A DNA stretch of 64,000 nt. It comes from Thermoplasmatales archaeon SW_10_69_26. Its GTDB lineage: Archaea > Thermoplasmatota > SW-10-69-26. Shown piece after piece: positions 17,975 to 45,688 of the stretch. Position numbers and translations under genes: made by a program. Below the pieces are notes generated by a model. It was not told the DNA's origin. It was given only the letters and a program-made list of their open reading frames with translations, and made no database searches. The stretch covers positions 850 through 64,849 of the forward strand of contig PXUB01000037.1 of assembly GCA_003009755.1 (NCBI GenBank), given 5' to 3'. Each line of letters starts with the position of its first letter. Within the stretch, counting starts at the first letter, position 1.

Positions 17975-18405
17975 CGAGGCAAGCAGGCGGAGGGATCCCG
18001 ATCGAACAGCCGGGCGAACGCCTCCACCCACGCCTCGACCTCTTCTCTCAAGGCGTTCCTCGGCGAGCGTCTGCGGAACGGGCCGATCCGTGCTTTGAGC
18101 AGGCCAACCCAGGTCTCCACCCTGTTCCGAACGCCGCCCGACGTGACTTGCCAGTCCAGCTCGAGCAGGTCCAACGGCCAGGGATACCACACGCCGCGGT
18201 CGACGTGGATCGCCGGCCGGTTGTCGCACCGGGCTGGCACGTGCTTGAGGAAGCCCAGGGCGTCCACGCTGCTCCGGCCTTGGCTGACCGCGACGTGGAC
18301 AAGTTGTTGCGTGTCGGGGCCGACGGCGGCCCACAGGAACAGCTCGGTCAGGTGGTCGCCGGCGTCCTTGTCGCCGTCCTCGGGCCACGCACCCGCTTGT
18401 TGCAA
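17975..18405 (-). pseudogene. IS630/Tc1-family transposase remnant (C-terminal ~145 aa only)
   Basis: ...CDNRPAIHVD...NRVETWVGLLKARI... is consistent with the C-terminal part of an IS630/Tc1-like DDE transposase (carrying the second catalytic Asp in DNxxxH). No N-terminal half. About 180 bp is 93% identical to 31171-31355. Confidence 0.55.
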
Positions 18406-18443
18406 CGACGCACCACCCAGGGGGAGGACGGCGGGCCGCTGGC

Positions 18444-20621: not shown

Positions 20622-23600
20622 GGACGGTCACCTCGATTTGGCCCCGGTCCACGGCGCCGATCTCGTCCTCGACCGTGAGCGTCACGTTGTAGCTGCCGGC
20701 CTGCTCGAAGGCGTGGACGGGGGCGCCCGCGGTGCTGGTGGCCCTGTCGTCGAAGTCCCAGGCGATGGCGGTGATCGGTTCGGGGCTCGAGGAGGCGTCC
20801 ACGAACTCGACGGGCTCGCCGACGGTCACGTTCGTGGCGTTGGCGGTGGGCGCAGCGACGAGGGCGTGGGGGCGCGGCGCGAACTGGACGCCGACCTCCG
20901 AGAGGGGCGTGGGGGTGGTGCGGTAGGTGACGCCGCTGGTGGTGTTCGACGACTGGGTTCCGATCGTGAACGTGGGGAGGTCGTAGGCCATCCAGGCGTC
21001 GGCCTCCTCGATCATGCACCTTGCCTTCCCGTCCTCGGTCAGGTGGAGCTGGACGGTGATGGAGCCCCCGTCTCCGGTCGGTACCTGTTGCCACTCGACG
21101 ACGAAGGCCCGGTTGGGCTCCTCGCCGACCGTCGCATAGCGCACGTCCGCCGGATCCGGCATCGATTCCCTGGGAGCGTAGGTTTGCGCGCAGTTCACCT
21201 CGTGGTCGGGCCCCCCGTCGTTTTCGCGGATGAAGGCACCGCTGAGCATCTCCTGGTCCGTGCAGTTCCCGATGCACGTGAGCCCGAAGTCCAGCACCCG
21301 CACTTCGGAGTGGTCGTCCCCGTACCAGGTGAAGTTGAACGGGAGCTGGAGGGGGCCTGACGCGTCCGTGCTATAGACGAAGAAGTCCGTGGAGAGGTCC
21401 TCGAACGTGAGCGAGGTCCCGTCGCTGGTGTCGGCCCAGTCGAAGGGGATCTCGGTGCACGTGTACCCGCCCACGTCGGGCCCGGTGTCCTGGCATCGGG
21501 GGGCGCGCGCCGTGGCGTCGGCCGGTTCGCCCTCGCCGGCGTCGTTGACGGCGGTGACGTGGTACTCTCTCTGTTCAAGGTAGTCGAGGCCTCGTTCCAT
21601 GTGGTGGCGCTGATCCTCGTCGAACGCGGTGACGAGGGTCTGGGTCCCGTCCGGGTTCACTTCGTAGAGGCGGTACGCGGTGACGGGGCCGGTGCCGGGG
21701 TCGGTGGGGGCGCCCCACTGGATCGTGACCTCTCGCGGCTGACCCGGCGGGGGCTCATCGGCCGGTGAATCGAACCGGTTGGCTCCCACCTTATCTTCGG
21801 AATCGGTGACCTCCGTGAGGTTCCACACCGGGCCCGGAGCCGTGGATGCATCGGTACTGGGGACGTGGGGGAGGTCGATCTGGAAGCCGCCGGCTCCCTT
21901 CGGGATCCGGGAGGTGTCCGTTCCCCGGCTGCCGTCGTAGTCCGCGTACGTGTCGGTTCCGCCTTGGTCGAGCAGCAGGCCCGCCCCGGGTTTCTCGGTG
22001 CTGGCGACCGGGTGGGGACCGATGAACTCGCAACCGGCCACCGGGTACAGGCACACCCGGTCGAAGACGAGGGTCGTCTTCCGGGGTGACCAGCTGGCTC
22101 CGTTGGCGCCCTGCGTGGTGGCCTGGTAGGTGTCGTCGCCGGCGTCGTCGCGCAGGAACCCGGTGCCCGACTGGGCCGCGCCGCCGTTGGTGGCGACGTT
22201 CTTGGCCTCGTAGGTATCGTCGCCGGCCCGGTCGTAGAGGAACCCGTTGCCTCCCCTGTAGCCGCCGCCGTTGCCCGCCTTGTCGGCGGTGTAGCGGGTT
22301 GCTCGTCCGTTCTGAAGGGGACGAAGGTTAGCGGACTGGACCCGGCGCTTCCCCCGTTCACCGCTATGTCGTCCGGCCTCTCGAAGCTACTCGCGGCGTG
22401 GTAACCGTCGTCGCCGGCCCCGTCGACTAGGAAACCCAAGGCGCGTCCGTAGCCGCCCCCGTTGGACCACGAGCTCCCCTCGTACGTGTCGTTGCCGGCC
22501 ACGTCGACGAGGCTTCCGATGGCTCTCCCGAACGCTCCGGCGCCGTTGCTGAGTCCACCCCCGACGTAGCGGTCGTTGCCGCCTCCATCGAAGAGGAACC
22601 CGGAGTCGCCCTGGGAGCCTCCGTTGGTCGTTTGCCCGGTGGGGGCGAAGAGGCAGTTCCGCCCGGTGATGTACGCGTCGTCCCCGCCGGCGTCCGCGAG
22701 GTAGCCCTGCCCGTAGATCGCGGCACCGTTCACCCCGTACTTGCAGGTTGTGTAGGTCTCGTCGGCGTCACCGCCGTCGTAGAGGAACCCGAACCCTCCG
22801 AAAAAGGCCCCCCCGTTGGTGGCGTAGATCGGGGCGTGGTAGGTGTCCTGGCCCACCCGGTCAACCAGGAACCCCGCGGGTGTGGTATCGGTGGATTCGA
22901 GGACGCCGCCGTTGGCGCCCTCTCCCCGCTGGGCCTCGTAGCGGTCGTCGCCGCCGGTGTCCACCAGGAGGCCGCTTCCCTCGAGGACTACGGCCCCGTT
23001 CACGCCTTGGAGGGGGGCCGTGTAGGTGTCGTCGGCTTCGCCGTCGTCGACGAGAGCGCCTACGCCTAAGGCGCCGCCGCCGTTCACGCCATAGAGGCCA
23101 CCGGTGTAGCGATCCTCGCCCTCGGTGTCGACCAGCAGGCCGATCCCGTGGACCCAGCGGGGTTGGACGCCCAGCTGGCCCATCACGTTTGCGCCGCCGT
23201 TGACGCCGCGCGATCCTCCGTCGTAGGCGTCGCCGCCGTCGTGGTCGACGAGCGTGCCCAGGCCGCTGGCGCCGCCGCCGTTGACGCCCTTGCCCCGGAC
23301 CTGGTATGTGTCCGATCCGTCGCCGTCGACGAGCAGGCCCGCGCCTAGCGCGTGGCCGCCGCCGTTGGTGCCGAAGTCGCCGGCCTGGTAAGCGTCCTGG
23401 CCGTCGGCGTCGACGAGCAGGCCGGTGCCGCCCAGCGAGGCGCCGCCGTTGACGCCCAGCGAGTTCAACAGCTTGAAGCAGCCCTGGTAGCCCTGGTAGT
23501 CGGGACGGTCGCCGGCGAGGGTGGCCTCGAGCGTGGCGTGGGTGTCGACGATCCCGTAGCCGAGGTCGGCGTTGCAGCCGTCCTCGGGGGGCGCGGGTTG

Positions 23601-26222
23601 GGCGTTGTCCCGGAGCAGTTGGCGGAGTTGCTTGTTCGTGAGGTCGTCGGCCTGGCTCCAGGCCAGCGCGGCGGTGGCGCTGACGTGGGGGGCGGCCATG
23701 CTGGTACCGTTGAGGACCCTGTACCCCGAGTCATCGCAGTAGTAAGGACCCTCACCGCGGTAAGGGCCAAGGAAGGGAGGCTCGTCTTCGACGCAGGCAG
23801 GGAGGGTGCTGAGCACGGCATCGCCAGGCGCGGCCAACTCGGCGTTGGGTCCATAACTGGAGTACCCGCACCGGGTCGCGTTCTCGTTGGTGCACGTGAC
23901 CGCGATCACCTCGTCGTAGGCGGCCGGGTACCTCACGCAGTCGTAGCACCCACTGTTGCCGGCGGCCGCGACCAGCAGGGCCCCCTCCTCCCAGACGTCG
24001 TGGACGGCCTGACGGATGGCGCTGTGGTCCAGGGTGGTGGTGATGCTCATGCTGATGACGTCCCCGCCGTTTTCGACACACCAGTGGAGCCCTTGGACCA
24101 CGTCGCTGACGAAGCCGCGACCGTCCTCGTTGAGGACCTTGGCGGCCATCAGGCCGGTGTGGGCGGTGCCGGCGACGCCTGTCTCGTTGTCGATGGTGGC
24201 GGTGGCGATGCCGGTGACGTGCGTCCCGTGGCCGTAGTCGTCCATCGGGTCCTCGTCGTCGTTGTGGAAGTCGTGGCCGGCCAGCAGGCGGTCTTCGGCG
24301 ATGTCCTCGTGCGTGTAGTCGACGCCCGAGTCCAGGATGCACACGGATTCGGAGGTGTCGCCGTTGGTGGTCTCCCAGGCGTCGGGTGCGTTGACCTGCT
24401 GGGGAGCATATTGGTCGTCGTAGAGCGGGTCGTTGGGGGTGGAGGCGGCGTGGACTTTCGCGTCGGGTTCCACGTAGCGGACGTTGGCGTCCTGTCGAGC
24501 CTCGGCCGGGAAGGTGACCGGATCCTCGGCTTCGACGACGAGGATCTCCTGCTCGGGCAGGGTGTCGAGGACGGTGGCGTTCTCGTAGGTGTCGCCCACC
24601 GACAATCCGGGGTTGTCTTGGTAGCCGACGAGGTAGCGGTCGGTCATGGCCTCGTTGCTGGCGGCCATGCCGGTGGGGTTCTGCCGGGCGGTCTCCTCGA
24701 TGCTCTCCGGGACGTGGCCGGCCGCGGTGTCGGGTTGGTAGGTGTCGTCCCCGTGGGCGTCGATCAACAGGCCGCTGCCGGCGTAGCCGCCGCCGGTGGC
24801 GCCGCAACCGGCGGTGCTGACGTAGGTGTCGTCGCCGCTCACGTCCACGAGGGCGGCGGCGGTGCCGGTCTCGTTGAGGTCGCACTCAGGGGCCTCTTGG
24901 AGGTTGGAGCCGCCGGCGTTGTTCTCGTAGGTGTCGTCGCCGCCGGCGTCGACGACGAGCGCGTAGTCCTCGGTGTACGTGTCGTCACTCTCGCCTAGGT
25001 CGATCGCCAGCGCCGGCTGGATGTCCACGGGCGCGGTGGTCGTCACCGGCGTGGTTTCGGCGAGGGCCTGGTGGAGGTCGAGGGCGGTGTCGAGGACATC
25101 CTGGCGGGCGCCGAACACCTCGGCCAGGTCTAGGTTGGCGTCCGCGTGGGCGTCCGAGAGGGACTGGCGAGGGGTTTCCTCGAGCTTGGCGGGGTCGACG
25201 GGGAGCCTTGGGATCGCTTGGTCGGTCTCCCAAGGGTCCTCGTCCCCCATGGTGAGGTCCCCGAACTTGTCGTCGTACTGTGCGGGCGTCATGGGAGCCA
25301 TGCCCAGCCCGGCGGGGCCGTCGGTGTCGGCCGCGCGGGGGTGCAGTTGGGCCAGGTGGTCGGTGTCGGCGTCGGCGTAGGCGTCCTGTGTGGCGGTCTC
25401 GAAGGCGAGGAAGGCGTCGAGGTAGTCGGTGAGGGCCTCCCGCAGCGTCGGGGGGAGGTCGTCGAGGTGATCGAGGCTCTGGCGTTGGTCGAGGGTCGGC
25501 GTGGCGTCGTGGCGGTGGACGAGCTCGCGGGCGGCCTGGCTGGGCGAGGCGTGGTCCGGCGGGGTCACGTCGACCGGCTCGATGCCGAGCGTGTCGGCCT
25601 GGTGGCGTGTGGACTGTTGGGCGGATCGGATCGACCGCTCGACCTCGCTTGTGGTCTCGTCGTCGGCGGTGGCCAGCAGGTCCTCGGCGACGTCGAGGTG
25701 GGCCTGCTGTTGGGCGAGATGGGAGGTGTCGGTGTCGATGCGGTCCCGGCGGTCCTGCACCGCCGTGTGGGCGGTCGCGAGGGCTTGGTCGCGGTTGGTG
25801 AGGCTGGAGTCGTCCTCGATCGCCGTGAGGGCCCGGGTGAGGTCGACGTTGGCCAGCTGGGCATCGAGGACCTCGCCCAGGCCCGGGTCCAGGGGCCCGT
25901 TGTGAGCGAGGGCTTGGCGTTGCTCGAACGCGGTGGCTGCCGCTGTGAGGGTCTTCTCGGTCGGGGCCGCGGTGGGATCCTCGACGGTAGCGTCGAGGCG
26001 GTCGGCCAGATCCATGCTGGCCTGCTGGGCGTCGGGCAGGTCCACGGGAACCTCCGCCGCATCCGATCTGGCTGTGGGGTCGATGGTTTCCGTCTCCGTG
26101 GGGGCCTCGTCGGTTCCGGGGGTGAAGACCCCGGCGCCGAGCCCGCTGATGGCGGGGGAGAGGGTGACGACGAGGGCCAGGGCGAGGACGGTGAGCGTGG
26201 AGTGGGTTGGGTTCGTGGTCAT
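20611..26222 (-). CDS. giant secreted subtilisin-like (S8) serine peptidase with VNGG/DxY tandem repeats and C-terminal FN3/PKD domains; apparent frameshift near 22290-22385
   Basis: ATG at 26222 with signal peptide ([27 protein letters not shown]). S8 catalytic triad context: D in ILDSGVD, H in HGTHVTG, S in GTSMAAPH. More than 20 copies of a ~27-aa G-x-NGG-x3-G-x-G-x-L-x-D-x2-G-x-D-x-Y repeat. Reading continues in a second frame (ORF 20611..22056), which carries more repeats plus PKD/FN3-like sequence (...[35 protein letters not shown]...). Confidence 0.65.
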
Positions 26223-27649
26223 GGGGACGTGCCTCCTGGGGTGGGTCGGTCGTGGTCGAGTTGGGCGCCGACGAGGCCCTTGGGGACGACCGTTTTGTCG
26301 GTGCCGGTGCCGCCCTCGAAGTCCTCGTAGGTGTCGGTGCCGTTCCCGTCGTACAACAGGCCCACACCGACGGGGACGTATTGATCAGTGACGAGAGAGT
26401 CGTAGTTGCCGTCGGTGGCGTGGCCGTTGACGGCGGTGACGGTGGCCTCGTAGCGGTCGTTGCCGTCGAGGTCGACGAGCAGGCCGGCGCCGGCCAGCCC
26501 GCCGCCGTTGGTTCCGTCCGATCCTGCGGTGTAGGTGTCGTGGCCGTCGGCGTCGAGCAGGGCGCCCGACCCGCCAAAGGCCACGCCGCCATTGGTCCCG
26601 GCTCCGTCGGCGAGGTAGGTGTCGTCTCCGTCGGCGTCGAGGAGGAACCCGTGGCCGCCGAAGTTGGCTCCCCCGTTCACGCCGCTGGCGGTGCCGACGT
26701 AGGTGTCGTTGCCCCCTTCGTCGAGGAGGGCCCCGACCCCGGAGTGCACGGCGCCCCCGTTCACGCCGCCCCTCCGTTTACCCGTGGGATCGTCGAAGAT
26801 GGCGGGATCGCCGTACTCGTCGTCGCCGTCGCCGAGGTCGACGAGCGCGGCGGGGTTGAGCCGGTAGACTCCAGGAATGGCCACCAGGTTGCTGGTTCCA
26901 CCGGCGTTGTTGTGGTAGGTGTCCTCGCCCCCGACGTCGATGGAGAGTCGGACGTCTTCCGTGTACGTGGCATCGCAGCCCTCCACGTCGAGCGCCAGCA
27001 CGCCGACGGAACCGACGATCGGATTGTCGGGCGTCTCGATGACGAGGGGCTCGCACGCGCTGGCGGTATCCGCCGGCATCCCGGGAGTGGTTTGGACGGC
27101 TCTGTGGAGGTCCTGGACCTCGTCGAGCAGACCGTTTCGGGCGGCGAAGACGCTCCCTGGGTCGCTGTCGGTGGAGGCCGCGCCGAGGACGAGGAACGCG
27201 TCGATCACGTCGGTGAGCTCGGTGCGGAAGGGCTCATCAAGGGTGTCCAGCTCGCGGACCTGGTCCAGGTCGTCGTCTGCAAGCGTTGCGTCGTGCTGGT
27301 CCGCGAGCGCGAGCACGGCGGCGCTCGGCGAATCATGCTCGATCGTCGGAAGGTCCACCGCGAGCCCATCGCCGAGCGTGGAGGCCTGGTGCTCGCCGAC
27401 GAGCTTGCCCAGCTCGATCGCCTCGGCGAAGGAGACGTCCTCGCCGGCCTCGTCCTGGAAGTGCTGGATCGCGGTCGGGAGCCCGTCGTAGGCCTCGACG
27501 GACGCGTCGGCGGCCGGGGCGCCCGAGCCCGACGACGATGGGCTCGGGGAGACGGCGGCGGTGGCCGGGACGGTGACGAGGGCGATCGCGGCGGCGAGCA
27601 CGGCAAGGCGGCGGGGCGACTCGATGAGCAAGCCTGCGGCCTCCGTCAC
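26219..27649 (-). CDS. secreted VNGG/DxY-repeat protein, paralogue of the N-terminal module of the giant protease; Tat-type signal
   Basis: 476 aa, GTG at 27649. SPRRLAVLAAAIALV looks like a twin-arginine signal. The helical region is homologous to the giant protein (LADQHDATLADDDLDQVRELDTLDEPFRTELTDVIDAFLV vs [40 protein letters not shown]). About 8 VNGG repeats. Stop overlaps the giant gene ATG (ATGA). Confidence 0.7.
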   Translation of the reverse strand: MTEAAGLLIESPRRLAVLAAAIALVTVPATAAVSPSPSSSGSGAPAADASVEAYDGLPTAIQHFQDEAGEDVSFAEAIELGKLVGEHQASTLGDGLAVDLPTIEHDSPSAAVLALADQHDATLADDDLDQVRELDTLDEPFRTELTDVIDAFLVLGAASTDSDPGSVFAARNGLLDEVQDLHRAVQTTPGMPADTASACEPLVIETPDNPIVGSVGVLALDVEGCDATYTEDVRLSIDVGGEDTYHNNAGGTSNLVAIPGVYRLNPAALVDLGDGDDEYGDPAIFDDPTGKRRGGVNGGAVHSGVGALLDEGGNDTYVGTASGVNGGANFGGHGFLLDADGDDTYLADGAGTNGGVAFGGSGALLDADGHDTYTAGSDGTNGGGLAGAGLLVDLDGNDRYEATVTAVNGHATDGNYDSLVTDQYVPVGVGLLYDGNGTDTYEDFEGGTGTDKTVVPKGLVGAQLDHDRPTPGGTSP

Positions 27650-27727
27650 AGGGAGCGGGCCAGTGCACGGTTAAGCGTTGCTTGACAAAATCGCATATTC
27701 CTCGCCCGCGAGGGGTCTCGCGACGCC
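27556..27727. repeat. direct repeat copy A (promoter + first ~30 codons of the 476-aa gene)
   Basis: 134 bp near-identical to 28835-28968 (2 mismatches read). Similarity continues, more diverged, for about 40 further bp. Confidence 0.7.
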
Positions 27728-27855
27728 GCCACGACCCGAGGATCCGCGTAGCGAGGCCCGCCGGGCCCTCGCCGCTGGCCGCACGTCGGCGAGCACGGGA
27801 ACGTCCAGGTCTTCGACGACGTCCGGTAGCCAGCGAACCCTCCCGGGCCCGAGCG

Positions 27856-28380
27856 TTACCTGTCGAGGTGCCGGCGAGCCAGAACCTCCAGCACCCCACC
27901 CTCCCAACCGCGGGCTTCGATGATCTCGTCCACGAGACGACGAGCCTGCGTCGTCGACAGCTCGCCCCGCTTCCTCGACTCGACGATCACGGCCACCGAG
28001 ATGCGAAGCCGGATGCCGTGCGCCATCGCCTCGTCCCTCAGCCCGGCGATCGCCCGCGCGTCGTCCGTGACAAGGACCTCGGCCTTCGACTCCCGGCAGG
28101 CCTGCAAGCAGGCAGCCTCCGCTGGCTGAACCCGGTTGGAGACGAGCGCTTCCATCGTCTCCGTAGCCTGGATGGAGAACACCTCGATCCCGCCCCCATC
28201 GATCCGAGACAGAACGCGCTCGGCCGCGGCGGCCTCCTCGTCGTCGAACCCGGCGAGATCCTCGAGCTCGGAAACCACCCTTCCCACGGTTGCGAGGTCG
28301 ACGAACGCGATCCGGTCGAGCAGATCCACCAGCTCGAGCGTGAGGAGCGCACTGGTGTCAGCAACGACACCCCGACTCAT
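27856..28380 (-). CDS. PIN-domain protein (VapC-like toxin candidate)
   Basis: 174 aa. N-terminal VVADTSALL resembles the PIN beta1 Asp motif, with later conserved acidic residues. ATG overlaps the stop of the upstream RHH gene (ATGA). Family assignment is by motif only. Confidence 0.5.
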   Translation of the reverse strand: MSRGVVADTSALLTLELVDLLDRIAFVDLATVGRVVSELEDLAGFDDEEAAAAERVLSRIDGGGIEVFSIQATETMEALVSNRVQPAEAACLQACRESKAEVLVTDDARAIAGLRDEAMAHGIRLRISVAVIVESRKRGELSTTQARRLVDEIIEARGWEGGVLEVLARRHLDR

Positions 28381-28661
28381 AACCCATCGTCGAAGGAGCG
28401 TTCGGCGACGTCCGTGTAATAGGCCACCGTCTTCGCTTCCTCGAACCCCAGGATCTGGACCAGGTCGTCGAACCCGATCTTCCCCTCGGCGAAGCGCTCG
28501 GATGCAAGCCCGCGGATCTCCGAGAGGCTTTGCTCCTTGTCGAGGTAGTCCTGAAGCGCCTCCCGAACGAGATCGGACTTGTTCGCGTGCTTCTCGGCCG
28601 CCAGTTCCTGGAGCCGCCGCGAGAGCTCCTCTTCCAAGCGCACCGTGAGGACGCTACCCAT
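28377..28661 (-). CDS. ribbon-helix-helix (CopG/RHH) antitoxin-like DNA-binding protein
   Basis: 94 aa. N-terminal RHH pattern LTVRLEEELSRRLQELAAEKHANKSDLVREALQDYL. An unusually AT-rich putative promoter lies immediately upstream (28662-28700). Confidence 0.65.
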   Translation of the reverse strand: MGSVLTVRLEEELSRRLQELAAEKHANKSDLVREALQDYLDKEQSLSEIRGLASERFAEGKIGFDDLVQILGFEEAKTVAYYTDVAERSFDDGL

Positions 28662-28793
28662 GAAGGCGTATTACGTTGTCATACTTTCATAAGCGTTTCG
28701 GCGCGTTCGGCGATGTTGGAAAGCGAGGTCGGCCACCGACCCAGCCCGGCGGAGGTAGGGTGTGACCTGGCCCCCGGCCCTCGCCCGAGCGGG

Positions 28794-28928
28794 TCAGCTC
28801 CGGGGAGATCGCTCGTCCTCCGCGGGGAGGAGGTCGGCGGTGGCCGGGACGGTGACGAGGGCGATCGCGGCGGCGAGCACGGCAAGGCGGCGGGGCGACT
28901 CGATGAGCAAGCCTGCGGCCTCCGTCAC
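28794..28928 (-). pseudogene. duplicated 5' fragment (44 codons) of the 476-aa repeat-protein gene
   Basis: Encodes MTEAAGLLIESPRRLAVLAAAIALVTVPATA then diverges and stops. It lies inside direct-repeat copy B. Confidence 0.55.
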
Positions 28929-29018
28929 CGGGAGCGGGCCCGTGCACGGTTAAGCGTTGCTTGACAAAGTTGCTTGACAAAAGCACAACTATTCCACGCC
29001 CGTGAGGGGCCGACCCCC
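28835..29018. repeat. direct repeat copy B, with an internal 13-bp tandem duplication (gttgcttgacaaa x2 at 28956-28981)
   Basis: See copy A. The tandem 13-mer is absent from copy A. Confidence 0.7.
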
Positions 29019-29088
29019 GGAATATCCGATACTGTTCACCAGAAACGCCTAAGGCCGCCCCCGCCCATCCCCCGACCGCAACCTCCCC

Positions 29089-30762
29089 ATGAGAAGCGCC
29101 GAGATCGTCGTTGGAGCCCTCCTCCTCGTCTCCGGGACGGCCATCCCGGGCCTCCCCATCCTCGAGGACGAGACCGCGACCAACTCCTCCGTCCGGGCCG
29201 AGGCCGTCTTCGAGACCGCCCAGTACGCCGGCCCCGCCGAGATCGAGGCGGACGGCGGCGCATTATGGAGCGAGGGGAGCCTCGAGGCGACGATCGTCGC
29301 CGAGTCGGTGACGGTGACCCGCTACGTCTGGGAGGGCGCCCACGTCGACACCTGGACCGGCCAGGAGGACGGCCTCTGGGCCTCGACGCACCATGGCAAG
29401 GGGACCACCGAGCGCTCGGCGACGACGTACGAGAACGCCACCATCCGGATCGACACGACGTCCGAGGCCGTGATGTCCGCCTGGCCCAACGCCACCCGCG
29501 GGCCCACGACGTTCGCCGCCGACCTCGCCGCCGACGAGACCCCGCCCATCGTCGCCTCCCCCAGCGGGACCATCCTCTGGCTGCTGTACTCGGGGTTCGA
29601 CCACCACGTCGAGGGACCCCTCTTCGCCCTCGGCCACAACGGCGGCCGTATCCACGACGCCTGGGTCGAGGACGCGGAGATCGAGCAGCTTGGCATCCAA
29701 GGCGCCCTCGACCTGAACGTGCTGGGCGGTAAGGTTACCGTGGAGACCGACGACGGGACGGACACCTATCGGACCGGCGTCGAGCAGACCGAGACCGAGA
29801 CGGACGTCCACGAGAACACGGTCAGGACCAAGCGCGTCCACGCCCTCGTCCACGTCACCGACGCCACCTTCCGGACGTCGATGGGCGAGGCCGAGAGCGT
29901 GTTCCTCGCCCAGGAGCCCACCTGGACGATCAACGGGAGCCTGCGGATGGACGCCCGGGAGGGCGAGGTCCGGACCGGTGCCGAGGACGCGACGCTCGAC
30001 AACGACACGCTCGCCGTCCTAGGCAACACGACCCTGGACCTGGCGGCCCAGGGCGAGACGCCGGACCCCTCGGACCCCCAGCCGTACCCGCGGGAGGAGC
30101 GCCCGACCCGGCCCATCGAGGCCGAGATGACCAGCGACGCCGACCAGGTGAGCGTCGACGGCCAGACGCACGACCTGCCGGAGCCGTTTCTCGTCATTGC
30201 CACGCAGAATCCCGTCGAACAGGAGGGCACCTTCCGGCCGCATCCACGAGCACATCCTGGAGGCCGGCATGGCCCACGTCCGCCGCGTCGCCCGCGACCT
30301 CGAGATCCCGGTCTCGTCGGCCATGTACCACTTGCGCGTGCTCCGCGAGGCTGGCCTGCTCGTCCGGGTGAAGCGCGAGGGGTACACCGTCTACTTCTCG
30401 TGCGACCGCTTCGACGTCGACGAGAAGAAGCGTCTGGCCCTGCTTGCCGGCGGCCCCCGCCGCGATATCGCCTCCACGCTCGCCGAGCGGGGCGCCATGA
30501 CCCAGGCGGCCCTCGCCGAGCTGCTCGAGGTGAGCCAGTCGACGGTCTCCAGGCAGATCGCCAAGCTCGAGGAGGCCGGTCTCGTCGAGGGGAACGGGAA
30601 CCACGGCATCCGGTACCGGCCCGCCGGCCTGCTTCGGGAGTGGCTCGGGCTGGAGAGCGAGGGCGCAGGTGGGGCGGGATCGGGCGGCGAGTGAGGGCCT
30701 GGCCGGGCCCACCCCCGTTCATCGTCACCGGCTGGTTCTGCCGGCCACGTGAACGTTCTTGA
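29089..30762 (+). CDS. secreted hypothetical protein whose 3' region is chimeric (in-frame MoxR-like fragment, then out-of-frame run into the ArsR gene); probably disrupted
   Basis: ATG at 29089. Signal peptide [21 protein letters not shown]. About 340 coherent acidic residues. From about 30130 the frame encodes [31 protein letters not shown], homologous to this genome's MoxR ([31 protein letters not shown]). After that the translation becomes Arg/Pro-rich frame noise. Confidence 0.4.
30130..30234 (+). pseudogene. MoxR AAA+ ATPase gene fragment (~35 codons)
   Basis: Homology to the central region of the intact MoxR at 40509-41480. No ATPase N-terminus or C-terminus is present. Confidence 0.5.
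30197..30694 (+). CDS. ArsR/SmtB-family winged-helix transcriptional regulator, apparently 5'-truncated
   Basis: ...[54 protein letters not shown]... matches the ArsR HTH. A second wHTH-like segment ([41 protein letters not shown]) follows. There is no ATG; only a TTG at 30197, directly after the MoxR fragment. Confidence 0.5.
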
Positions 30763-30843
30763 GGGCCCGGGCGGGGCGGTCTCGGCCACGAGGCGGCGCG
30801 GCGGCGCCGCTTCTCCGCGCAACGCCTCTGAACCCAAGACGAG

Positions 30844-31150
30844 TTGGTCTGGCTCAAGGAACCCAAGTTCCACGACGAGCGGGACCGCCTGCTCCGCCAA
30901 CGCGTCCTCCACATCGACGCCCTCGAGGAACGCAAAGCCATCCTCGAGCCCCTCCTCGCGGGGTTGGCGTTAGAGGACGAGCCGGCGCACTGGTTGATGA
31001 GCATCCCCGGGTGCCGGTGGTACCTGGCGATGTACATCCTCAGCGAGGTCGGCACCATCAATCGGTTCGACAGCGTGGACGCGTTCAAGAAGTACAGCGC
31101 GTGCTGTCCCCGCAAGCAACCCACGGGCGGCCGGCAGGACCCGTACGGGG
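30844..31150 (+). pseudogene. IS110-family transposase C-terminal fragment
   Basis: LMSIPGCRWYLAMYILSEVGTINRFDSVDAFKKYSACCPRKQPTGGRQ matches the conserved IS110 C-terminal motif (L.SIPG.G...A......G...RF.S.....Y.G..P....SG). No DEDD N-terminal domain. Confidence 0.5.
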
Positions 31151-31170
31151 TGGTCCAGCATGGGCCGCTG

Positions 31171-31400
31171 TCAAGGCAAGCAGGCGGACGGATCCTGATT
31201 GAACAACCAGGCGAACGCCTGAGCCCACGCCTCGACCTCTTCTCTCAAGGCGTTCCTCGACGAGCGTCTGCGGAACGGGCCGATCCGTGCTTTGAGCAGG
31301 CCAACCCAGGTTTCCACCCTGTTCCGAACGCCGCCCGACGTGACTTGGCCGTTTCGCGGTCGAGGACGGGGCCGACCCGCCCCAGCGGGCCTTCTGCGAG
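31171..31400 (-). pseudogene. second IS630/Tc1-family transposase remnant (~60 C-terminal codons)
   Basis: ...VRNRVETWVGLLKARIGPFRRRSSRNALREEVEAWAQAFAWLFNQDPSACLP* is about 93% identical in DNA to 17973-18150. This copy keeps the TGA stop. Confidence 0.55.
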
Positions 31401-31745
31401 GAGGACGGCCACGCCGAGCACCAGGCCCCGACCCGAGCGGCGACCGCGTAGCCCTGATCGCTCCCGCGTCCCCCGCCTCCAGCGAGCGGCGTTTCACCGA
31501 CCGAGCCACACCGTTTCCCGATCGGCCCAATCGGCTCAAGTGTCCCCCAGCCGAGTCCCGGTCGAGGTGACCGAGGACATGAGGACACGACCGATCGAGG
31601 ACCACGCCGCTCTCGCCCGCCCTGGGTCAGTGGGGCGAGGCCCCGAGGAACCAGAGCAGGGCGGTCTTCGCGATGGAGACACCGTCTCGCATCCGGGTCC
31701 GCCGTCTGTTTTCGTCTTTCCCGACTTCCACGGTTGCGGTCATCC

Positions 31746-32657
31746 ATGATCACGTGCCAGGAGATCACGAAGAGCTACGGGGAACACGTCGTCCTCGCGT
31801 CCGTCAACCTCGATGTGCGGCGGGGCGAGACCTACGGTCTGCTCGGCCCCAACGGGGCGGGGAAGACCACGACGTTCAAGCTCGTCCTCGGCCTCGAGGA
31901 TCTCGACAGCGGTCGGGTCCTGGTGGGGAACAGGGACGTCGACAAGGACCGGGCGAGGTTCCTGGCCGACGTCGGCTACGTTCCCGAGGTCGTACCCGTC
32001 GAACCCCGCAAGACGGCCCGACAGAACCTGCGAGACGTCGGCCGATTGTACGATGTCGCCTCCCAGGAACTCGAGGACCGCATCCCGGAACTGCTGTCGT
32101 TCGTTGGCCTATCGGGGACAGGGGGCGATCGCGTCACCACGTTCTCGAAGGGGATGCGCCAGCGACTGGGGATCGCGCGGAGCCTGCTCCACCGTCCCGA
32201 CCTGTTGCTGTTGGACGAACCGTTCAGCGGGCTCGACCCCGAGGCCCAACGAGAGCTTAGACGTCTCGTCGAAACGCTGGCCTCGGAGGGACTGGCCTTG
32301 CTGATCGCGACCCATCGCCTGGCGGAGGCCTCCGAGATGTGTGACCGGGTCGGGATCCTCCACGAGGGACGCCTCCGTCAAGAGGTCCCGCTCGATGACC
32401 GGTCCCGGGAGAGCATCCACGCCAACTTCCTTGCCCCCGTCGGCGAGGAGGTCCTGGCGGCCGTGAACGATCTCGACGGCGTGGGCGCTGTCGAGCGGGG
32501 GAACGGGTGGGCTCGGATCCTCGCCGACGACGATTTGGGCGTCTCCCAGGTCCGAAGCATCCTCCAGGGGAAGGCCCGTCTCACCCGATACCGGAGCCCG
32601 AAACGGGAGCTCGAAGGTCTCTACGACCGCGTCACCAGCGAGGGGTCGAAGGCATGA
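31746..32657 (+). CDS. ABC transporter ATP-binding protein (ABC-2 type)
   Basis: ATG at 31746 (MITCQEITKSYGEHVV...). Walker A GPNGAGKTT. Signature LSGGQRK-like region FSKGMRQRLGIA. Walker B LLLLDEPFSGLD. Confidence 0.85.
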   Translation: MITCQEITKSYGEHVVLASVNLDVRRGETYGLLGPNGAGKTTTFKLVLGLEDLDSGRVLVGNRDVDKDRARFLADVGYVPEVVPVEPRKTARQNLRDVGRLYDVASQELEDRIPELLSFVGLSGTGGDRVTTFSKGMRQRLGIARSLLHRPDLLLLDEPFSGLDPEAQRELRRLVETLASEGLALLIATHRLAEASEMCDRVGILHEGRLRQEVPLDDRSRESIHANFLAPVGEEVLAAVNDLDGVGAVERGNGWARILADDDLGVSQVRSILQGKARLTRYRSPKRELEGLYDRVTSEGSKA

Positions 32658-33406
32658 TCGGCCCCCTCCGCCGGGAGATGACGACGATGTTGATGAGCTG
32701 GCGGCTCCCCGTGTTCCTCTTGGTCGCCGGCGGGTACCTCACCTACAAGCTGTCCACCCTCCTCGCCGATCCGACCGTCGCCGTCGCCTCGGCCTGGACG
32801 GTTCTGCCCGGCCTCGTCGAGGCCGGCCTCCTCCTCGTTCTCGGCCTGGCTTTCCTCTTCTCGCTCGACGCGCTCTCCCGCGAGCGGGATTCCGGCATGA
32901 TGGCGATCCTCCGCGTGACCCCGGTCACCTCCCACCGGATCGTCGCGGCGAAGCTCACCGTGCTCGCCGTCATCTACGTGGCTGTGGCGTTGCTGCTGGT
33001 GGCTGGGGCCGCCGTCGCCTCGTTCGCGGTCGGGGGACCACTGTTGTCCGCACTGCTCGGGTTCCTCGGCCCGCTCACGCTGGTCTTTTCGTTCCTCGCC
33101 GGGCTCGGGCTCTTCATCTCGGCGGCCACCGGCTCGGCTCGGACGTCGTTCGTCGTCGGTGCCCTGTCGTTCCTCCCGCTTTGGCTGACGATGGAACCGG
33201 ATGGCCCGGGACAGGTCCTCCTCTACCACCTCGGGGCCGGATCCGCGAGCGCCTGGATCCCTCTCGAGGCGGCCTACCTGGCCGGCCTCTCCCCGTTGAG
33301 CGCTTTCCAAACGCGGTGGCCAGCTCTCGTCGGCGCGGGCGTCCTCGGTCTCGTCCTCGCCGCGATCGCTGGGACCGTCATCGATCGCCGGGAGGTGAGC
33401 CTGTGA
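32654..33406 (+). CDS. ABC-2 family transporter permease
   Basis: ATG at 32654 overlaps the ATPase stop (ATGA). About 6 predicted TM helices. Confidence 0.65.
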   Translation: MIGPLRREMTTMLMSWRLPVFLLVAGGYLTYKLSTLLADPTVAVASAWTVLPGLVEAGLLLVLGLAFLFSLDALSRERDSGMMAILRVTPVTSHRIVAAKLTVLAVIYVAVALLLVAGAAVASFAVGGPLLSALLGFLGPLTLVFSFLAGLGLFISAATGSARTSFVVGALSFLPLWLTMEPDGPGQVLLYHLGAGSASAWIPLEAAYLAGLSPLSAFQTRWPALVGAGVLGLVLAAIAGTVIDRREVSL

Positions 33407-34989
33407 AACGGATCTTGCCCCTCCTGCTCCTCGCCGGCGCCGGCCTCCTGTTGATCCCACCGGCCCAGGGCGATTCGCCGAGCGTGATGGTCGACGTCGA
33501 AGGCGACTGGAGCTCGGACTCCAACGCGCTCGTCTTCCCCGTCGGGACCCCCCGCGCGATCGACACGACGGTCGCGAACACCGCCGAGGAGCCGGTCGAG
33601 GGCCAGCTCGTCGCCGAGGCGACCATCGGCGAAGAGGTCGCTCGCTGGGAGCAACCCGTCAGGGTCCCCGCCGGCTCGCAGATCCAGCGGCAGCTCGAGG
33701 TACGCTGGCCGGCCCTCCAGTCGGCGACGGTGACCGTCACCTTCGACGGGGAAGCCGAGTCCTCCGAGGCCTTCGCTCAGGGGTTCGGCGTGCCGGCGCT
33801 CGACGTCGAGTTCGATCGTCTGCACGAGAAGGGGCGCTACCTGCCCTACGACAAGCCCCTGACCCCCACCGCGAGCGTCGAGAACCTCGCCGGGGAGCCG
33901 TCGAACCGCACGGAGCTCGCGCTCACGATCGAGAGCTTGGAGGAAGCCGCGAGGACCGACCTCGCCCCGATCGAGGCGGGCGGAACCCGCGAGATCGAGC
34001 TACCCTCGCTGCATCCCTCCGACTCTGGCAGCCTGTCGGTGGGCGGCGCCGGGTCCACGGCGACGACGTCGTTATCGGGGAAGATGATCGCCACGCCGGA
34101 GGGTCCCTCCGCCTACGAGGGTCCGCTCTTCGATTTCGAGGTCCGTGAGGGCGTGGTCCGATCGGCGGGCACGGCCGGTTTCTTGGCCCACGTTCTCAAG
34201 GGCACCGCCCTGGAGCTGGCGGCGTCCTCCGTGACGCCCGGGGAGCCCTCGACCGCCACCGTCTGGGTCGCGAACTTCCGCGGCGAGGGAACCGCCGGCG
34301 CGCGTCTGGACGCCGAGATCTCCCCCCTGCTCATGTCGGGGCCGGACCCCAGCGAGTCGACGGTCGAAACGCGTTCGCTGTATCTCGACCCCTACGAGGA
34401 GAGGCTCGTCACCTTCACCTTCGAGCCGACCGTCGTGGGTCCCCACCGCCTGCAGGCGGACATCGACGGGTACGTCCTGGGGGCCTCGCTGGATGAGGTT
34501 CTGGCTCCCGATCTCGGTGCCCCCGTCCAGGATTGGCAGCTCGAGGATTCCACCCCATCGCTCGCGACCGGCGAGGAGACCGAGATCGAGCTCTCCTGGA
34601 CCCCCGCGGAGGGGTTCGAGGAGGGAACGGTCGGTCTGGCGATCACCCCTGTCCGGCAGGAGAACCAGCGGCTGGATCCCCGCTTCGGCGGCTCGGGGGA
34701 CCAAGCCGAGTTCGTGACCACCCGCACCCTCGACACGCAGATCGTGAACGCCTCGACCGGCGAACGGACGACCACCTTCCAGCTAACGGCGCATGCCACG
34801 GGCATCTTCGACGTCGCCCCCTACATGGAGACGGACGCGGGGATCTCGTCGTTCCCGGACCCCGCATCGGGCAAGCGACGCCTGGAGGTCGTGGACGAGA
34901 GCCCGGACCAGCTTGGTCCCTGGCTCCCGGCGATCGCCTCAGCCTTGCTGGCGGGCGTGGTCACCACGTGTCGCTTCCGCGCCGCCTGA
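33403..34989 (+). CDS. secreted/cell-surface hypothetical protein encoded with the ABC-2 transporter
   Basis: GTG at 33403 overlaps the permease stop (GTGA). Signal peptide KRILPLLLLAGAGLLLIPPAQG. 528 aa, acidic. C-terminal hydrophobic stretch LPAIASALLAGVVTT. Confidence 0.55.
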   Translation: MKRILPLLLLAGAGLLLIPPAQGDSPSVMVDVEGDWSSDSNALVFPVGTPRAIDTTVANTAEEPVEGQLVAEATIGEEVARWEQPVRVPAGSQIQRQLEVRWPALQSATVTVTFDGEAESSEAFAQGFGVPALDVEFDRLHEKGRYLPYDKPLTPTASVENLAGEPSNRTELALTIESLEEAARTDLAPIEAGGTREIELPSLHPSDSGSLSVGGAGSTATTSLSGKMIATPEGPSAYEGPLFDFEVREGVVRSAGTAGFLAHVLKGTALELAASSVTPGEPSTATVWVANFRGEGTAGARLDAEISPLLMSGPDPSESTVETRSLYLDPYEERLVTFTFEPTVVGPHRLQADIDGYVLGASLDEVLAPDLGAPVQDWQLEDSTPSLATGEETEIELSWTPAEGFEEGTVGLAITPVRQENQRLDPRFGGSGDQAEFVTTRTLDTQIVNASTGERTTTFQLTAHATGIFDVAPYMETDAGISSFPDPASGKRRLEVVDESPDQLGPWLPAIASALLAGVVTTCRFRAA

Positions 34990-35049
34990 GGGTCCCCGAT
35001 GCGCGGGAGCCCATCCCCGTCCGGCTTCGAGCTCCGGCTTCCCCGCCCT

Positions 35050-35799
35050 CTACCCGCCTTCGCTGCCCGTGATCTCGCGGCGGCGGAACCACAGCGTTCC
35101 CAGCAACCCGGCGACGACGGCGATCGCGACGAGCACGACGACGGCGGTCGTCGTCGTGGCGGGGTCGACGATCTCGCCGGCGAAGAGGCCGCCGCTGACG
35201 AAGCCCTGTTGGTCGACGATCGAGCGCACCCAGTAGGCGACGGTGGCCTTGCGGAACACGAGCCCGCTGCCGGCCACGATCGACTCCCAGCCGACCAGGT
35301 AGCCGAGGCCGAGCAGGATCGGACGCTCGACGAAGGCGCCGAGCAGGGCGAACAGGCTCGTGTACGCCAGGGAGGCCATCCCGGTGACGAGCCAGGTGAG
35401 GCCGACGAGCTCGGCGTCGAGGTGCCCGATGGCGGGGAACACGAGCGTGAGCCCGATGCCGGCGAGCAGCCAGGTGGCCAGCGCGGCGCCGGTCATGCGC
35501 GTGGCGAGCAGCTGGCCGCGCGAGACGGGCCGGGTGGCCAGGTGCACGATGGTGCCCTGCATCAGCTCCTCGCGCAAGGTCGCGACGCCGATGAACAACG
35601 CCATCAGCGGCACGACGAGGCCGACACCGACGACGAAGAGCACGAACGTCGTCTCGGCTTCGGCCGCGGCCTCGCTCCAGCGTCGCAGGCCCAGGCCCAG
35701 CAGAGCCGGGGCCAGCGCGAGCAGGGCGAGCCCGATCCGTCGGCGGCCGGTGAAGGCCTCGCGCAGGGCGTGGCGGGTGAGGGCGAGGTTGGCGTTCAC
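35050..35799 (-). CDS. ABC-2 family transporter permease (second pair)
   Basis: GTG at 35799 (VNANLALTRHALREAF...) overlaps the upstream ATPase stop (GTGA). Multiple TM helices. The long Arg-rich upstream part of the 549-aa ORF is a frame artefact. Confidence 0.6.
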   Translation of the reverse strand: MNANLALTRHALREAFTGRRRIGLALLALAPALLGLGLRRWSEAAAEAETTFVLFVVGVGLVVPLMALFIGVATLREELMQGTIVHLATRPVSRGQLLATRMTGAALATWLLAGIGLTLVFPAIGHLDAELVGLTWLVTGMASLAYTSLFALLGAFVERPILLGLGYLVGWESIVAGSGLVFRKATVAYWVRSIVDQQGFVSGGLFAGEIVDPATTTTAVVVLVAIAVVAGLLGTLWFRRREITGSEGG

Positions 35800-36731
35800 T
35801 CCGAGGCCCCCTTGGTGAGGTAGTTGAAGACGGCTTGGAGGTTGTCGTCGGGGCTGAGCAGCTCCTGGATGTCGTAACCCTCCTCGAGGATCGTGTCGCG
35901 CAACCGGTCGTAGAAGACGTCGGGGGCGCGGGTCTCGGCCAGCACCTCGCCCGGGTCGTCGTCGGTGGGCTCGCTCACGCGGACGCGGACGACGTCGTCG
36001 TGGGCGATCAGCGAGGTCGCCAGCTCGCGGGGTTGGCCCAGGCGGATGGTGATCTTGTGCGGGTGCTCGTCCATGATGTCGCGGATGCGGTGGATGTCGC
36101 CCTGGGCGACGATGCGGCCGCCGACGAGGACGACGATCTCGCGCGTGAGGGTCTCGATCTCGTGCAGCACGTGGCTGGAGAACAGGATCGAGCGGCCCGC
36201 CTCGTCGATGTCCGTTAAAAGCTCCATCATCTCGCGGCGGCCGACCGGGTCGAGGCCGCCGAAGGGTTCGTCGAGCACGAGCAGCTCGGGCTCGTGCACG
36301 AGCGCCATCGCCAGCTTCAGGCGCTGGCGCATCCCGCGGGAGTAGCCGCCGGCCGGGCGGTCGGCGGCCTCGGCCAGGCCCACGCGGGCCAGCCAGTCGT
36401 CGGCGGCCGAACGCGTGCCGGTCTCGGTCAGGTCGGCGGCCAGGTGGGCGTGGTCGCGCCCGGTGCGCTCCTCCCACAGGGACAGCGTCTCGGGCACGAA
36501 CCCGATGCGTTCGCGCAGCTGGGCGTTGCCCCAGGGATCCTCGCCGAGCACGCGCAGTCGGCCCGTGCTGGGCTCCAGTTGCCCGGTGAGGAGGCCCAGA
36601 AGCGTCGTCTTGCCGGCGCCGTTGGGGCCCACGAGCCCGGTCAGGCCAGCCTCGAGATCCAGGGAGACGTCGTTGAGCGCGACGACGTCGCCGTACCACT
36701 TGGAGACGTCCTCGAGCTCGAGCACGCTCAT
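35796..36731 (-). CDS. ABC transporter ATP-binding protein
   Basis: 311 aa from ATG at 36731 (MSVLELEDVSKWYG...). Walker A GPNGAGKTT. Signature YSRGMRQRLKLA. Walker B LLVLDEPFGGLD. Confidence 0.85.
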   Translation of the reverse strand: MSVLELEDVSKWYGDVVALNDVSLDLEAGLTGLVGPNGAGKTTLLGLLTGQLEPSTGRLRVLGEDPWGNAQLRERIGFVPETLSLWEERTGRDHAHLAADLTETGTRSAADDWLARVGLAEAADRPAGGYSRGMRQRLKLAMALVHEPELLVLDEPFGGLDPVGRREMMELLTDIDEAGRSILFSSHVLHEIETLTREIVVLVGGRIVAQGDIHRIRDIMDEHPHKITIRLGQPRELATSLIAHDDVVRVRVSEPTDDDPGEVLAETRAPDVFYDRLRDTILEEGYDIQELLSPDDNLQAVFNYLTKGASE

Positions 36732-37573
36732 CCGGCCACCTCCTCGCGGTGGAGGCCCCAGGTCAGCCCGGCGAGGCTCACCAGGACCCAGCCGGCGACG
36801 GTCAGCCAGGCGCCCAGTTCCGGGATGGGGCTGGTCTCGATGCCGAGCAGCGTGTGCGTGGTGCGTTCGAGGGCGTCGAAGAGGTCGATCAACAACAGGT
36901 CGGCGTTGTCGGCGACGCCGCGGGCCACGCGGGCGGCGGCCGCGAGCAGGAACACGAGGCCGACCCAGACGGCCGCGGTCCGACCGCGGGCGCCGACGAC
37001 GGCCGAGACCGCCGCGACGACGAGCGTCGTGACGAGGCCGACGAGGACGCTGGCGGCCAGGATGCCCAGCGGCAACAGCCACACGTTGTCGGGGTACAGG
37101 GCCTCGGGCGTGAACGCGACGGCCAGCAGCCAGAGGACGAGCACCGGGACCGCGGTGACGGCCAGCGTCGCCGCGAAGGGACCGGCGCCTTTGCCGGCCG
37201 CGTACCCGGGCTTGGTGAGCGGGTTGGTGAAGTAGAAGGTGAGGCCGCCGGTCTCCAGGTCCTCGGCGATGACGTCGGCCGCGACGGCGGCGAGCACGAA
37301 CGTGACGCCGAACCGGGCCTGGCTGAGGAGGGCGTCGGCCAGGAACGAGGCCGAGAACGGCGTGGCGCCGGGTTGGGCACCCTGGGCGCCGATCTGCAGC
37401 ACCGCGCCGCGCACGGCGATGTGGAGGAACGAGACGCCGAGGATGACCCAGAACCAGAGGGACGAGCCGACCTGGGCGAGCCCGCGCTGGGCGATCGCGC
37501 CGATGCGGGCCAACCGGGAGGTCCGCGAGCCCTCGTAGGCCTCGTAGGCGGGCTCGTAGACGGCGTCGGTCAC
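36728..37573 (-). CDS. ABC-2 family transporter permease (first pair)
   Basis: GTG at 37573 overlaps the upstream ATPase stop (GTGA). Hydrophobic helices throughout. Confidence 0.6.
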   Translation of the reverse strand: MTDAVYEPAYEAYEGSRTSRLARIGAIAQRGLAQVGSSLWFWVILGVSFLHIAVRGAVLQIGAQGAQPGATPFSASFLADALLSQARFGVTFVLAAVAADVIAEDLETGGLTFYFTNPLTKPGYAAGKGAGPFAATLAVTAVPVLVLWLLAVAFTPEALYPDNVWLLPLGILAASVLVGLVTTLVVAAVSAVVGARGRTAAVWVGLVFLLAAAARVARGVADNADLLLIDLFDALERTTHTLLGIETSPIPELGAWLTVAGWVLVSLAGLTWGLHREEVAG

Positions 37574-38484: not shown

Positions 38485-38548
38485 GGGCGCGACCACGCAG
38501 GGCGAATGCGGGGGATGGGAAGAAGGGTTGGGGTTCGGTCTCGTGACG

Positions 38549-40505: not shown

Positions 40506-40508
40506 GGG

Positions 40509-45668: not shown

Positions 45669-45688
45669 GATGGACCGTCATCGAGGGG

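Follow-up and report, generated by a model that had tools for sequence, protein, structure and literature searches.

A probable break-repair scar in a gene for a predicted membrane-anchored regulator, next to old transposon remnants, in a salt-crust Thermoplasmatales archaeon

We analyzed a 64,000-nt stretch of contig PXUB01000037.1 from the Thermoplasmatales archaeon SW_10_69_26 (hereafter, the window) and, within it, the interval 29089-31745, which a sequence-only reading had described as five gene fragments, namely, those of a secreted-protein gene, a MoxR gene, an ArsR-type regulator gene and two transposase genes. Our comparisons indicate that two of these, the “secreted gene” (29089-30165) and the “ArsR” gene (30237-30694), are not separate fragments but the collinear halves of a single conserved gene predicted to encode a transcription regulator, in which 157 nt coding for the transmembrane helix and adjoining residues were replaced by 71 nt of moxR-like sequence (30166-30236). 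We consider this lesion to be, probably, the scar of a break that was repaired very recently through templated synthesis. The locus represents ordinary genome decay in an uncultured salt-crust archaeon, with one freshly broken gene and two old transposon remnants.

One regulator gene in two halves

The lesion was compared with a related contig from a JGI metagenome (L001), which carries an intact homologue of the regulator (P0001), and with two contigs (L002 and L003) of an independent metagenome assembly, ENA ERZ27230162. Profile searches were run with Pfam (reporting threshold E<=0.01) and NCBIfam; reading frames were assigned from plots of the G+C content at third codon positions (GC3), and the structure was assessed using an AlphaFold model of P0001 and Foldseek. 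The SW_10_69_26 genome comes from Atacama salt crusts, where it was obtained as IDBA_UD scaffolds from HiSeq2000 2x100-nt reads; it is the sole Thermoplasmatales genome of that study and was found in one sample only (PMC5532433). The window has a G+C content (GC) of ~70% and encodes an acidic proteome.

An intact allele of the gene is present in the independent assembly. L002 is identical to window positions 25522-30165, with zero mismatches over 4,644 nt, and then extends into the intact gene for a further 87 nt; L003 opens with 84 nt of the intact allele and then follows the window from 30237 to 42654 at 99.86% identity, with no difference before 33932. The ends of these two contigs overlap by 14 nt and, when joined, yield an open 563-aa frame that is collinear with P0001. 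The window carries, in place of the 157 nt of this allele, the 71-nt patch ACGCACGACCTGCCGGAGCCGTTTCTCGTCATTGCCACGCAGAATCCCGTCGAACAGGAGGGCACCTTCCG, a net change of -86 nt that shifts the reading frame. In blastn comparisons with the relative, L001 9699-11077 aligns to window 28823-30165 at 91.7%, and L001 11241-11643 aligns to window 30243-30645 at 85.4%, with 163 nt between the two L001 blocks that have no counterpart in the window.

In the window, the open reading frame (ORF) at 29089-30762 (plus strand, 557 aa) does run from the secreted-protein part into MoxR-like codons, as had been noted from the sequence alone: residues 351-383 match positions 88-120 of 131 in the Pfam family AAA_3 (MoxR; E=1.1e-9). 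The GC3 coding signal follows this frame only up to ~30230-30235 and then moves to the next frame, where it extends to ~30690; after the shift, the ORF continues as an Arg/Pro-rich nonsense tail (residues 384-557). The 5' half shows GC3 of 0.9-1.0 in its own frame and 94% amino acid identity to the intact 566-aa P0001. The 3' half shows GC3 of 0.93-0.97 in the shifted frame, is collinear with the C-terminus of P0001, and matches, in Pfam, HTH_HVO_0163_N (positions 6-70 of 70) followed by HTH_20 (E=5.2e-19) and HTH_5 (E=1.3e-15). The HTH_5 and HTH_20 matches, along with Foldseek matches to ArsR, CzrA, CadC and SrnR, show that this half contains the winged helix-turn-helix of ArsR/SmtB-type regulators. 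The idea that the ArsR-type gene had lost its N-terminus and any ATG was not borne out: what remains is the complete cytoplasmic domain encoded by the same gene, and there is an in-frame ATG at 30269, which is taken in GenBank as the start of a 141-aa protein (BRD56_09630).

When the first 382 residues of the ORF were used as the query, 8 proteins (P0001-P0008) of 540-566 aa were retrieved, with 30-94% identity and 86-100% query coverage. All come from metagenome contigs, with no isolate genome among the matches, and the homologues of this regulator family are found in hypersaline metagenomes only. HVO_0163-type and ArsR-type winged-helix domains are present at the C-terminus of each of the 8 homologues, and MoxR-like sequence in none. 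The sequence-only reading had held that intact homologues including the MoxR-like tail would turn the apparent chimera into a real gene; full-length homologues do exist, so the gene is real, and with the tail in 0 of 8, the MoxR join itself is debris. From the N-terminus to the C-terminus, the homologues consist of a hydrophobic segment, an acidic domain of ~350 aa, a linker, a hydrophobic helix, the motif “ARDPL.N.RR.R”, and two winged-helix domains. The linker is conserved as “SV.VDGQ...P.IPEEVT” and leads into the hydrophobic helix, which begins LWGKILGLLLVAFSVLKKLP.

The 563-aa protein of the intact allele likewise has two hydrophobic segments and two winged-helix domains. The first hydrophobic segment (residues 4-26) forms the N-terminus of the 5' half; the second (372-402), which is a transmembrane segment in 8 of the 8 homologues, is present in the intact allele and gone from the window ORF. 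In the AlphaFold model of P0001 (mean pLDDT 69), the outer domain is all-beta, residues 373-390 form a helix, and two winged helices are present; Foldseek recognized only the tandem winged-helix and ArsR folds; for the outer domain, there was no match in Pfam and no confident structural match to PDB entries by Foldseek. Judging from this domain layout, the intact gene is predicted to encode a membrane-anchored transcription regulator with an outer domain, one transmembrane helix and a cytoplasmic tandem winged helix. In membrane-anchored one-component regulators, a transmembrane helix separates the sensor from the DNA-binding domain; in the window copy, this helix is replaced by the patch. The gene is divergent from a secreted-protein cluster that encodes a 476-aa protein, an S8 peptidase and a beta-helix protein.

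Apart from the replacement, both halves are undamaged, and therefore the lesion either arose very recently or is no biological event. Look-ups of the exact products of the ORFs of 557, 165 and 141 aa produced no match, the sole record being the GenBank annotation of the 141-aa product in this same genome.

Continued function of the broken gene seems quite improbable to us. In principle, loss of the anchor could free a soluble, constitutive DNA-binding protein translated from ATG 30269 or TTG 30197, with the outer domain secreted separately, and this possibility agrees with the undamaged winged-helix region, which is 100% identical to the intact allele, as well as with the GenBank annotation of a 141-aa protein. 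Yet, the upstream frame is open to 30762, leaving no nearby stop for re-initiation, and a start at ATG 30269 would drop the first helix of the N-terminal winged helix, given that the match to profile positions 6-70 begins at residue 15 of the longer ORF. Furthermore, there is no sign of selection, the lesion being a single event that is not conserved in any other record.

Further to the right, the window and L003 differ in three tight clusters, at 33932-33957, 39462-39483 and 42128-42146. In the first of these, a 25-nt tract within a gene for a CARDB-like surface protein is swapped for a 28-nt tract (ESLEEAART versus GGSKQPAARA), which suggests that short-tract replacements are common in this population.

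Origin of the patch and the proposed repair

Whereas a complete MoxR gene encodes the full AAA_3 domain, with Walker A and B motifs, and the AAA lid, the patch accounts only for AAA_3 positions 88-120 of 131. A moxR gene from a Halobacteriales genome (P0010) is identical to the window at 80 of 93 nt (86%) over 30144-30236, with the alignment ending exactly at 30236, and the translation of the patch is an exact amino acid match to a stretch of P0010. The left junction lies inside a similarity of 18-21 nt, where the regulator reads DQVSVDGQ and MoxR reads QVSVDGTTH. The SV.VDGQ motif is native to the regulator and conserved in its homologues, so that its similarity to MoxR at the left junction is due to chance. 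At the right junction, the patch and the native sequence share 2 nt, “GC”.

The window contains a moxR gene of its own (40509-41450, minus strand), with complete AAA_3 (positions 1-131) and the lid domain. This gene was considered as the donor and ruled out, being 72% identical to the patch. It forms an intact operon with a DUF58 gene (39219-40505), 10 kb to the right, in a region (35000-45700) that also contains a large Ig-like/DUF4129 gene (42564-45668) and ABC transporter genes.

The lesion thus combines the marks of a templated scar: a native deletion (157 nt lost), an ectopic insertion (71 nt gained) and microhomology at the junctions. As for the donor, the best matches are 86-90% identical, none of them exact in GTDB genomes or JGI metagenomes. 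The upper value comes from a shorter degenerate pattern, which gave 1 match in JGI metagenomes, 90% identical over 59 nt, on a contig with 65% GC.

Most documented cases of templated insertions at breaks are from eukaryotes and from archaea and bacteria studied in the laboratory; for archaea, our literature search on such insertions yielded only papers on genome editing in eukaryotes. The coincidence of a deletion, a short ectopic tract, extended priming homology at one junction and only minimal microhomology at the other favors templated break repair, and the course of events could have been as follows. Until very recently, the locus would have harbored one intact gene for the 563-aa membrane-anchored regulator. 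A double-strand break would have occurred within the lost segment, and the resected left end, terminating in CAGGTGAGCGTCGACGGCCAG, could have paired with the nearly identical stretch that codes for QVSVDG in a moxR gene, priming ~70 nt of synthesis on the moxR template. The extended end would then have dissociated and joined the right end via the 2-nt microhomology, that is, through microhomology-primed templated repair. In the window sequence, the outer domain is now fused to the nonsense tail, and the DNA-binding domain is left without a start of its own (ATG 30269 lies within the 3' part).

Several observations weigh against this account. The patch allele is known from one assembly only, and the patch is of the Halobacteria MoxR type, foreign-looking and only 72% identical to the moxR gene of the window. 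No donor was detected in an exact 67-mer scan of GTDB genomes, an exact 40-mer scan of JGI metagenomes, or a degenerate codon scan of GTDB genomes. Both ERZ27230162 contigs end inside the same 157-nt segment, a coincidence with a chance on the order of a few percent, and these contig ends possibly hint at a coverage gap or at allele heterogeneity. The putative repair mechanism, moreover, is one that we infer only from the anatomy of the junctions. Finally, the quality of the local assembly is not beyond doubt, as a reading frame break (~22293-22310) lies inside an array of 81-84-nt repeats in the neighboring gene for an S8 peptidase with repeats (20614-26222, minus strand). This gene is split in the window into two frames (residues 1-1290 and 1301-1870) compared to an intact 1870-aa ORF in L001, and represents either a second pseudogene or a repeat-collapse assembly error. 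The repeats in question (27-28 aa, Gly/Asp-rich, approximately G.NGG..G.G.L.D..G.D.Y) extend over 22095-26770 (minus strand) in the S8 peptidase gene and the gene for the 476-aa protein, which was not assigned to any Pfam family.

A rival explanation is an artefact of assembly or scaffolding, which we regard as less likely. Under this explanation, the gene is intact, and a coverage gap was misbridged by IDBA_UD with Halobacteriales moxR reads that were recruited via the 18-21 nt QVSVDG similarity. The scaffolds were indeed built from short reads, and the salt-crust communities are dominated by Halobacteriales (PMC5532433); the patch is of the type found in Halobacteria and does not resemble the moxR gene of the window; the independent assembly of a near-identical population has the intact sequence, and yet breaks in this very segment; the neighboring S8 peptidase gene contains a second frame break, within its repeat array; and the chimeric product is absent from all other records that we looked up. 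However, a chimera in a de Bruijn graph requires k-1 shared bases at both joins, and the right join has 2 nt. A misjoin normally switches for good and does not re-enter the same gene, at the collinear position, only 71 nt later, and the ~26x coverage implied by the genome name should outvote rare chimeric reads. Nor is the ENA assembly a direct test of the SW_10 reads: its contigs are labeled k119 and hence were built from reads longer than 100 nt, that is, from a different dataset. ERZ27230162 therefore cannot decide which allele the SW_10 reads support. We keep templated break repair as the preferred explanation of the lesion. A more specific version of it, in which the patch is a genuine in vivo scar, primed in a halophilic archaeon on the chance 18-21 nt similarity in a Halobacteria-type moxR, possibly foreign DNA from the community, and intact and scarred alleles coexist in populations that are identical apart from this difference, is one that we put forward only tentatively.

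For annotation, the regulator locus is best labeled as a pseudogene or flagged as a possible misassembly, in place of the present two “hypothetical proteins”. A real lesion would provide a clean natural archaeal example of a deletion with a templated insertion for which the ancestral allele is in hand, and, should the scar prove genuine, a datable natural example of microhomology-primed templated repair in archaea. The intact regulator family, which is uncharacterised, has a novel beta-rich outer domain and lies beside a secreted protease cluster, may outlast the debris in interest.

Transposon remnants, toxin-antitoxin cassette and gene order

Downstream of the regulator gene lie the remnants of two transposons (Table 1). 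The first matches the IS110 family model NF033542 in NCBIfam at positions 176-279 of 343 (E=1.1e-11) and Transposase_20 in Pfam at positions 2-52 of 87 (E=4.6e-6). The IS110 family had been correctly recognized from the sequence alone, whereas the placement of the fragment at the C-terminus had not, this being an internal piece. It lacks the DEDD N-terminal domain and the C-terminal end and thus falls short of the IS110 architecture; it is homologous debris rather than an element. Closer IS110 relatives in haloarchaeal plasmids are only ~33% identical, too distant to trace the remainder of the IS110 sequence beyond the IS6 remnant.

The second remnant, on the opposite strand, had been taken for a C-terminal IS630 fragment. 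Its orientation, its abutment on the IS110 piece and its origin from a transposase C-terminus were confirmed, but the family is IS6: no IS630 model matched at E<=1 in NCBIfam, none matched in Pfam, and the matches were to IS6 instead. The sequence at 31163-31352 (minus strand) is 93% identical, over 190 nt, to 17966-18155. The longer copy there (17966-18440) matches, with a hit placed at 17900-18405 (minus strand), NF033587 (IS6) at positions 84-196 of 202 with E=8.8e-11, which, for a fragment, is below the full-length cut-off, and shows 40-47% amino acid identity to haloarchaeal DDE transposases; homology to the transposase of the IS6 family is thus present, while the direct match of 31163-31352 to NF033588 is weak (E=0.064). 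Both copies start with the terminus GGCCGCTGTCRAGGCAAGCAGG, which occurs in the window only at 17966 and 31163. No inverted copy of it was found in the window at up to 3 mismatches, the other IS6 ends having been deleted.

The IS110 fragment is cut off by the terminus of IS6 at 31163, suggesting either that IS6 inserted into an IS110 element or that a deletion took place next to IS6; this IS6 copy was itself truncated later, at 31352. Because the debris is identical in L003, which carries the intact allele, the IS110 and IS6 remnants are older than the lesion. The stretch that follows (31353-31745) had no Pfam or NCBIfam match in six frames. The two IS6 remnants, which are in the same orientation, bracket ~13 kb containing the beta-helix, S8 peptidase and 476-aa protein genes, the toxin-antitoxin cassette, the regulator and the IS110 piece. 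This arrangement is reminiscent of a decayed pseudo-compound transposon of the IS26 type; identity between the copies is only 93%, and the other ends are absent.

Table 1. Features of the regulator locus and its surroundings in the window
Feature	Coordinates	Strand	Evidence or comment
Longer IS6-family remnant: C-terminal ~113 aa of the transposase and element end	17966-18440	-	NF033587; same orientation as the copy at 31163
Repeat X: 5' end and upstream region of the gene for the 476-aa secreted protein (26219-27649, minus strand)	27546-27736		Repeat, 95% over 149 nt
Toxin-antitoxin cassette: PIN-like DUF3368 toxin (27856-28380) and ribbon-helix-helix (RHH) antitoxin (28377-28661)	27856-28661	-	RHH_1, E=2.6e-9
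Repeat X': orphan 5' remnant of a gene of the 476-aa type and upstream region, leading into the regulator gene	28823-29010		Collinear with L001 from 9699 onward
Regulator, 5' part, 359 codons (hydrophobic segment and acidic all-beta extracytoplasmic domain)	29089-30165	+	GC3; homology to P0001-P0008; 100% to L002
Left junction, native codons for QVSVDGQ	30145-30165	+	Identical in L002 and L001
71-nt moxR-derived patch	30166-30236	+	AAA_3; 86% to Halobacteriales moxR; bounds set by L002 and L003
Regulator, 3' part, cytoplasmic tandem winged helix, out of frame with the 5' part	30237-30694	+	Pfam; GC3; 100% to L003
Spacer	30695-30861		L001 alignment stops just upstream (30645); a stop codon interrupts the IS110 frame
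Internal fragment of an IS110-family transposase	30862-31162	+	NF033542, Transposase_20; also in L003
IS6-family terminal 190 nt: element end and last ~60 transposase codons	31163-31352	-	93% to 17966-18155
Non-coding stretch before the first intact gene to the right (ABC ATPase, 31746-32657)	31353-31745		No frame-specific GC3

To the left of the regulator gene, the toxin-antitoxin cassette that had been noticed from the sequence was confirmed (RHH antitoxin, 28377-28661; DUF3368 toxin, 27856-28380). The toxin is PSG96600.1 at 100% identity. Its DUF3368 label comes from precomputed annotation of identical and near-identical proteins; in our own scan, no Pfam family was found for it at E<=0.01, and this discrepancy may reflect a difference in the Pfam version or threshold.

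The cassette is flanked by a direct repeat of 149 nt with 95% identity (X and X'), and the junction between the cassette and X', at 28823, is the same in L001. The gene order differs between the genomes. In the window, it runs beta-helix, S8 peptidase, 476-aa protein, toxin-antitoxin, regulator; in the relative (L001 and L006), it is second beta-helix gene, 488-aa paralogue, toxin-antitoxin, remnant, beta-helix, S8 peptidase, 460-aa gene, regulator. Thus, in the relative, the cassette is on the other side of the cluster of beta-helix, S8 peptidase and 460-aa genes, beside a 71-nt remnant of the X repeat. Most likely, the reordering was caused by recombination among paralogous 5' ends. A one-step history, with a single deletion or an unequal crossover between the X repeats, was considered and could not be made to fit both genomes. 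On the right, the gene order shared with L001 ends at ~30645; the next genes in L001 are sucD and sucC, and those in the window are the transposon remnants and the ABC transporter. The locus can fairly be called a rearrangement-prone spot.

Of the earlier proposal of a recombination and insertion hotspot at the edge of a genomic island, the hotspot part holds to some extent, given the break in synteny with L001 at ~30645 and the repeat-flanked, repositioned cassette; the island part is not supported. The locally low GC (~62-65%) that had been noted was not found for the interval, which has 69.9% GC (29089-31745) against a window mean of 69.7%. Only small pieces are lower, namely, the patch (63.4%), the IS110 piece (65.5%), the IS6 piece (64.2%) and the toxin-antitoxin genes (65.8%). 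There is no integrase, and no tRNA gene anywhere in the 64-kb window; the only Rfam match was to a microRNA model at chance level (E=0.094). With average GC, no tRNA gene, and both the regulator and the neighboring cluster present in L001, the locus does not have the features of a genomic island.

These results also bear on the remaining alternative, that independent remnants of secreted-protein, MoxR and ArsR genes came to lie at the decayed edge of an island that had carried a second MoxR operon. The adjoining transposon remnants and toxin-antitoxin cassette, and the break in the gene order shared with the relative, are in keeping with it. We find it highly improbable, however, because the two large “remnants” are collinear halves that are 100% identical to the intact allele, and because the MoxR piece, at 71 nt, fills the 157-nt deletion exactly, which is the signature of a patch rather than that of a lost operon. 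Neither is there any other MoxR-operon sequence (DUF58 or vWA-type genes) in the flanks; the average GC and the lack of a tRNA gene and an integrase point in the same direction.

Comparison with known systems

The lesion resembles templated (“filler”) insertions, such as those formed in microhomology-mediated end joining or in synthesis-dependent strand annealing with template switching, in that 157 nt were lost and a shorter ectopic tract of 71 nt was gained, with a long imperfect homology for priming (18-21 nt) and microhomology of 2 nt at the junction where the repair was resolved. It differs from them in that the donor was not found in the scans and in that the present case comes from a single metagenome-assembled sequence.

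Among mobile elements, the minus-strand remnants are similar to IS6 (IS26-like elements and their haloarchaeal relatives) in the C-terminal homology of the transposase and in that two copies of the same orientation flank a 13-kb segment; unlike intact IS6 elements, both copies are truncated, retaining neither the N-terminal transposase region nor the second inverted repeat, and are only 93% identical. The IS110 piece shares the central part of the transposase with IS110 elements, but the DEDD domain, the C-terminal end and the element ends are missing, and it is cut by IS6 on the right. The toxin-antitoxin cassette is VapBC-like in consisting of overlapping small genes, with an RHH_1 antitoxin upstream of a PIN-like toxin, and in its variable position among related genomes; in contrast to such cassettes, its flanks are formed by a duplicated 149-nt stretch from the 5' end of a neighboring gene, with no known mobile-element boundary.

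The regulator itself is related to HVO_0163-type tandem winged-helix regulators, its C-terminal domain matching PF24266 along with HTH_20 and HTH_5. The window copy differs from these, as well as from the ToxR/CadC regulators, in that it is frame-shifted and devoid of the transmembrane helix. Its intact homologues combine, as ToxR and CadC do, an extracytoplasmic domain, one transmembrane helix and a cytoplasmic DNA-binding domain. The domain order is, however, reversed, with the DNA-binding domain at the C-terminus in this family of predicted regulators.

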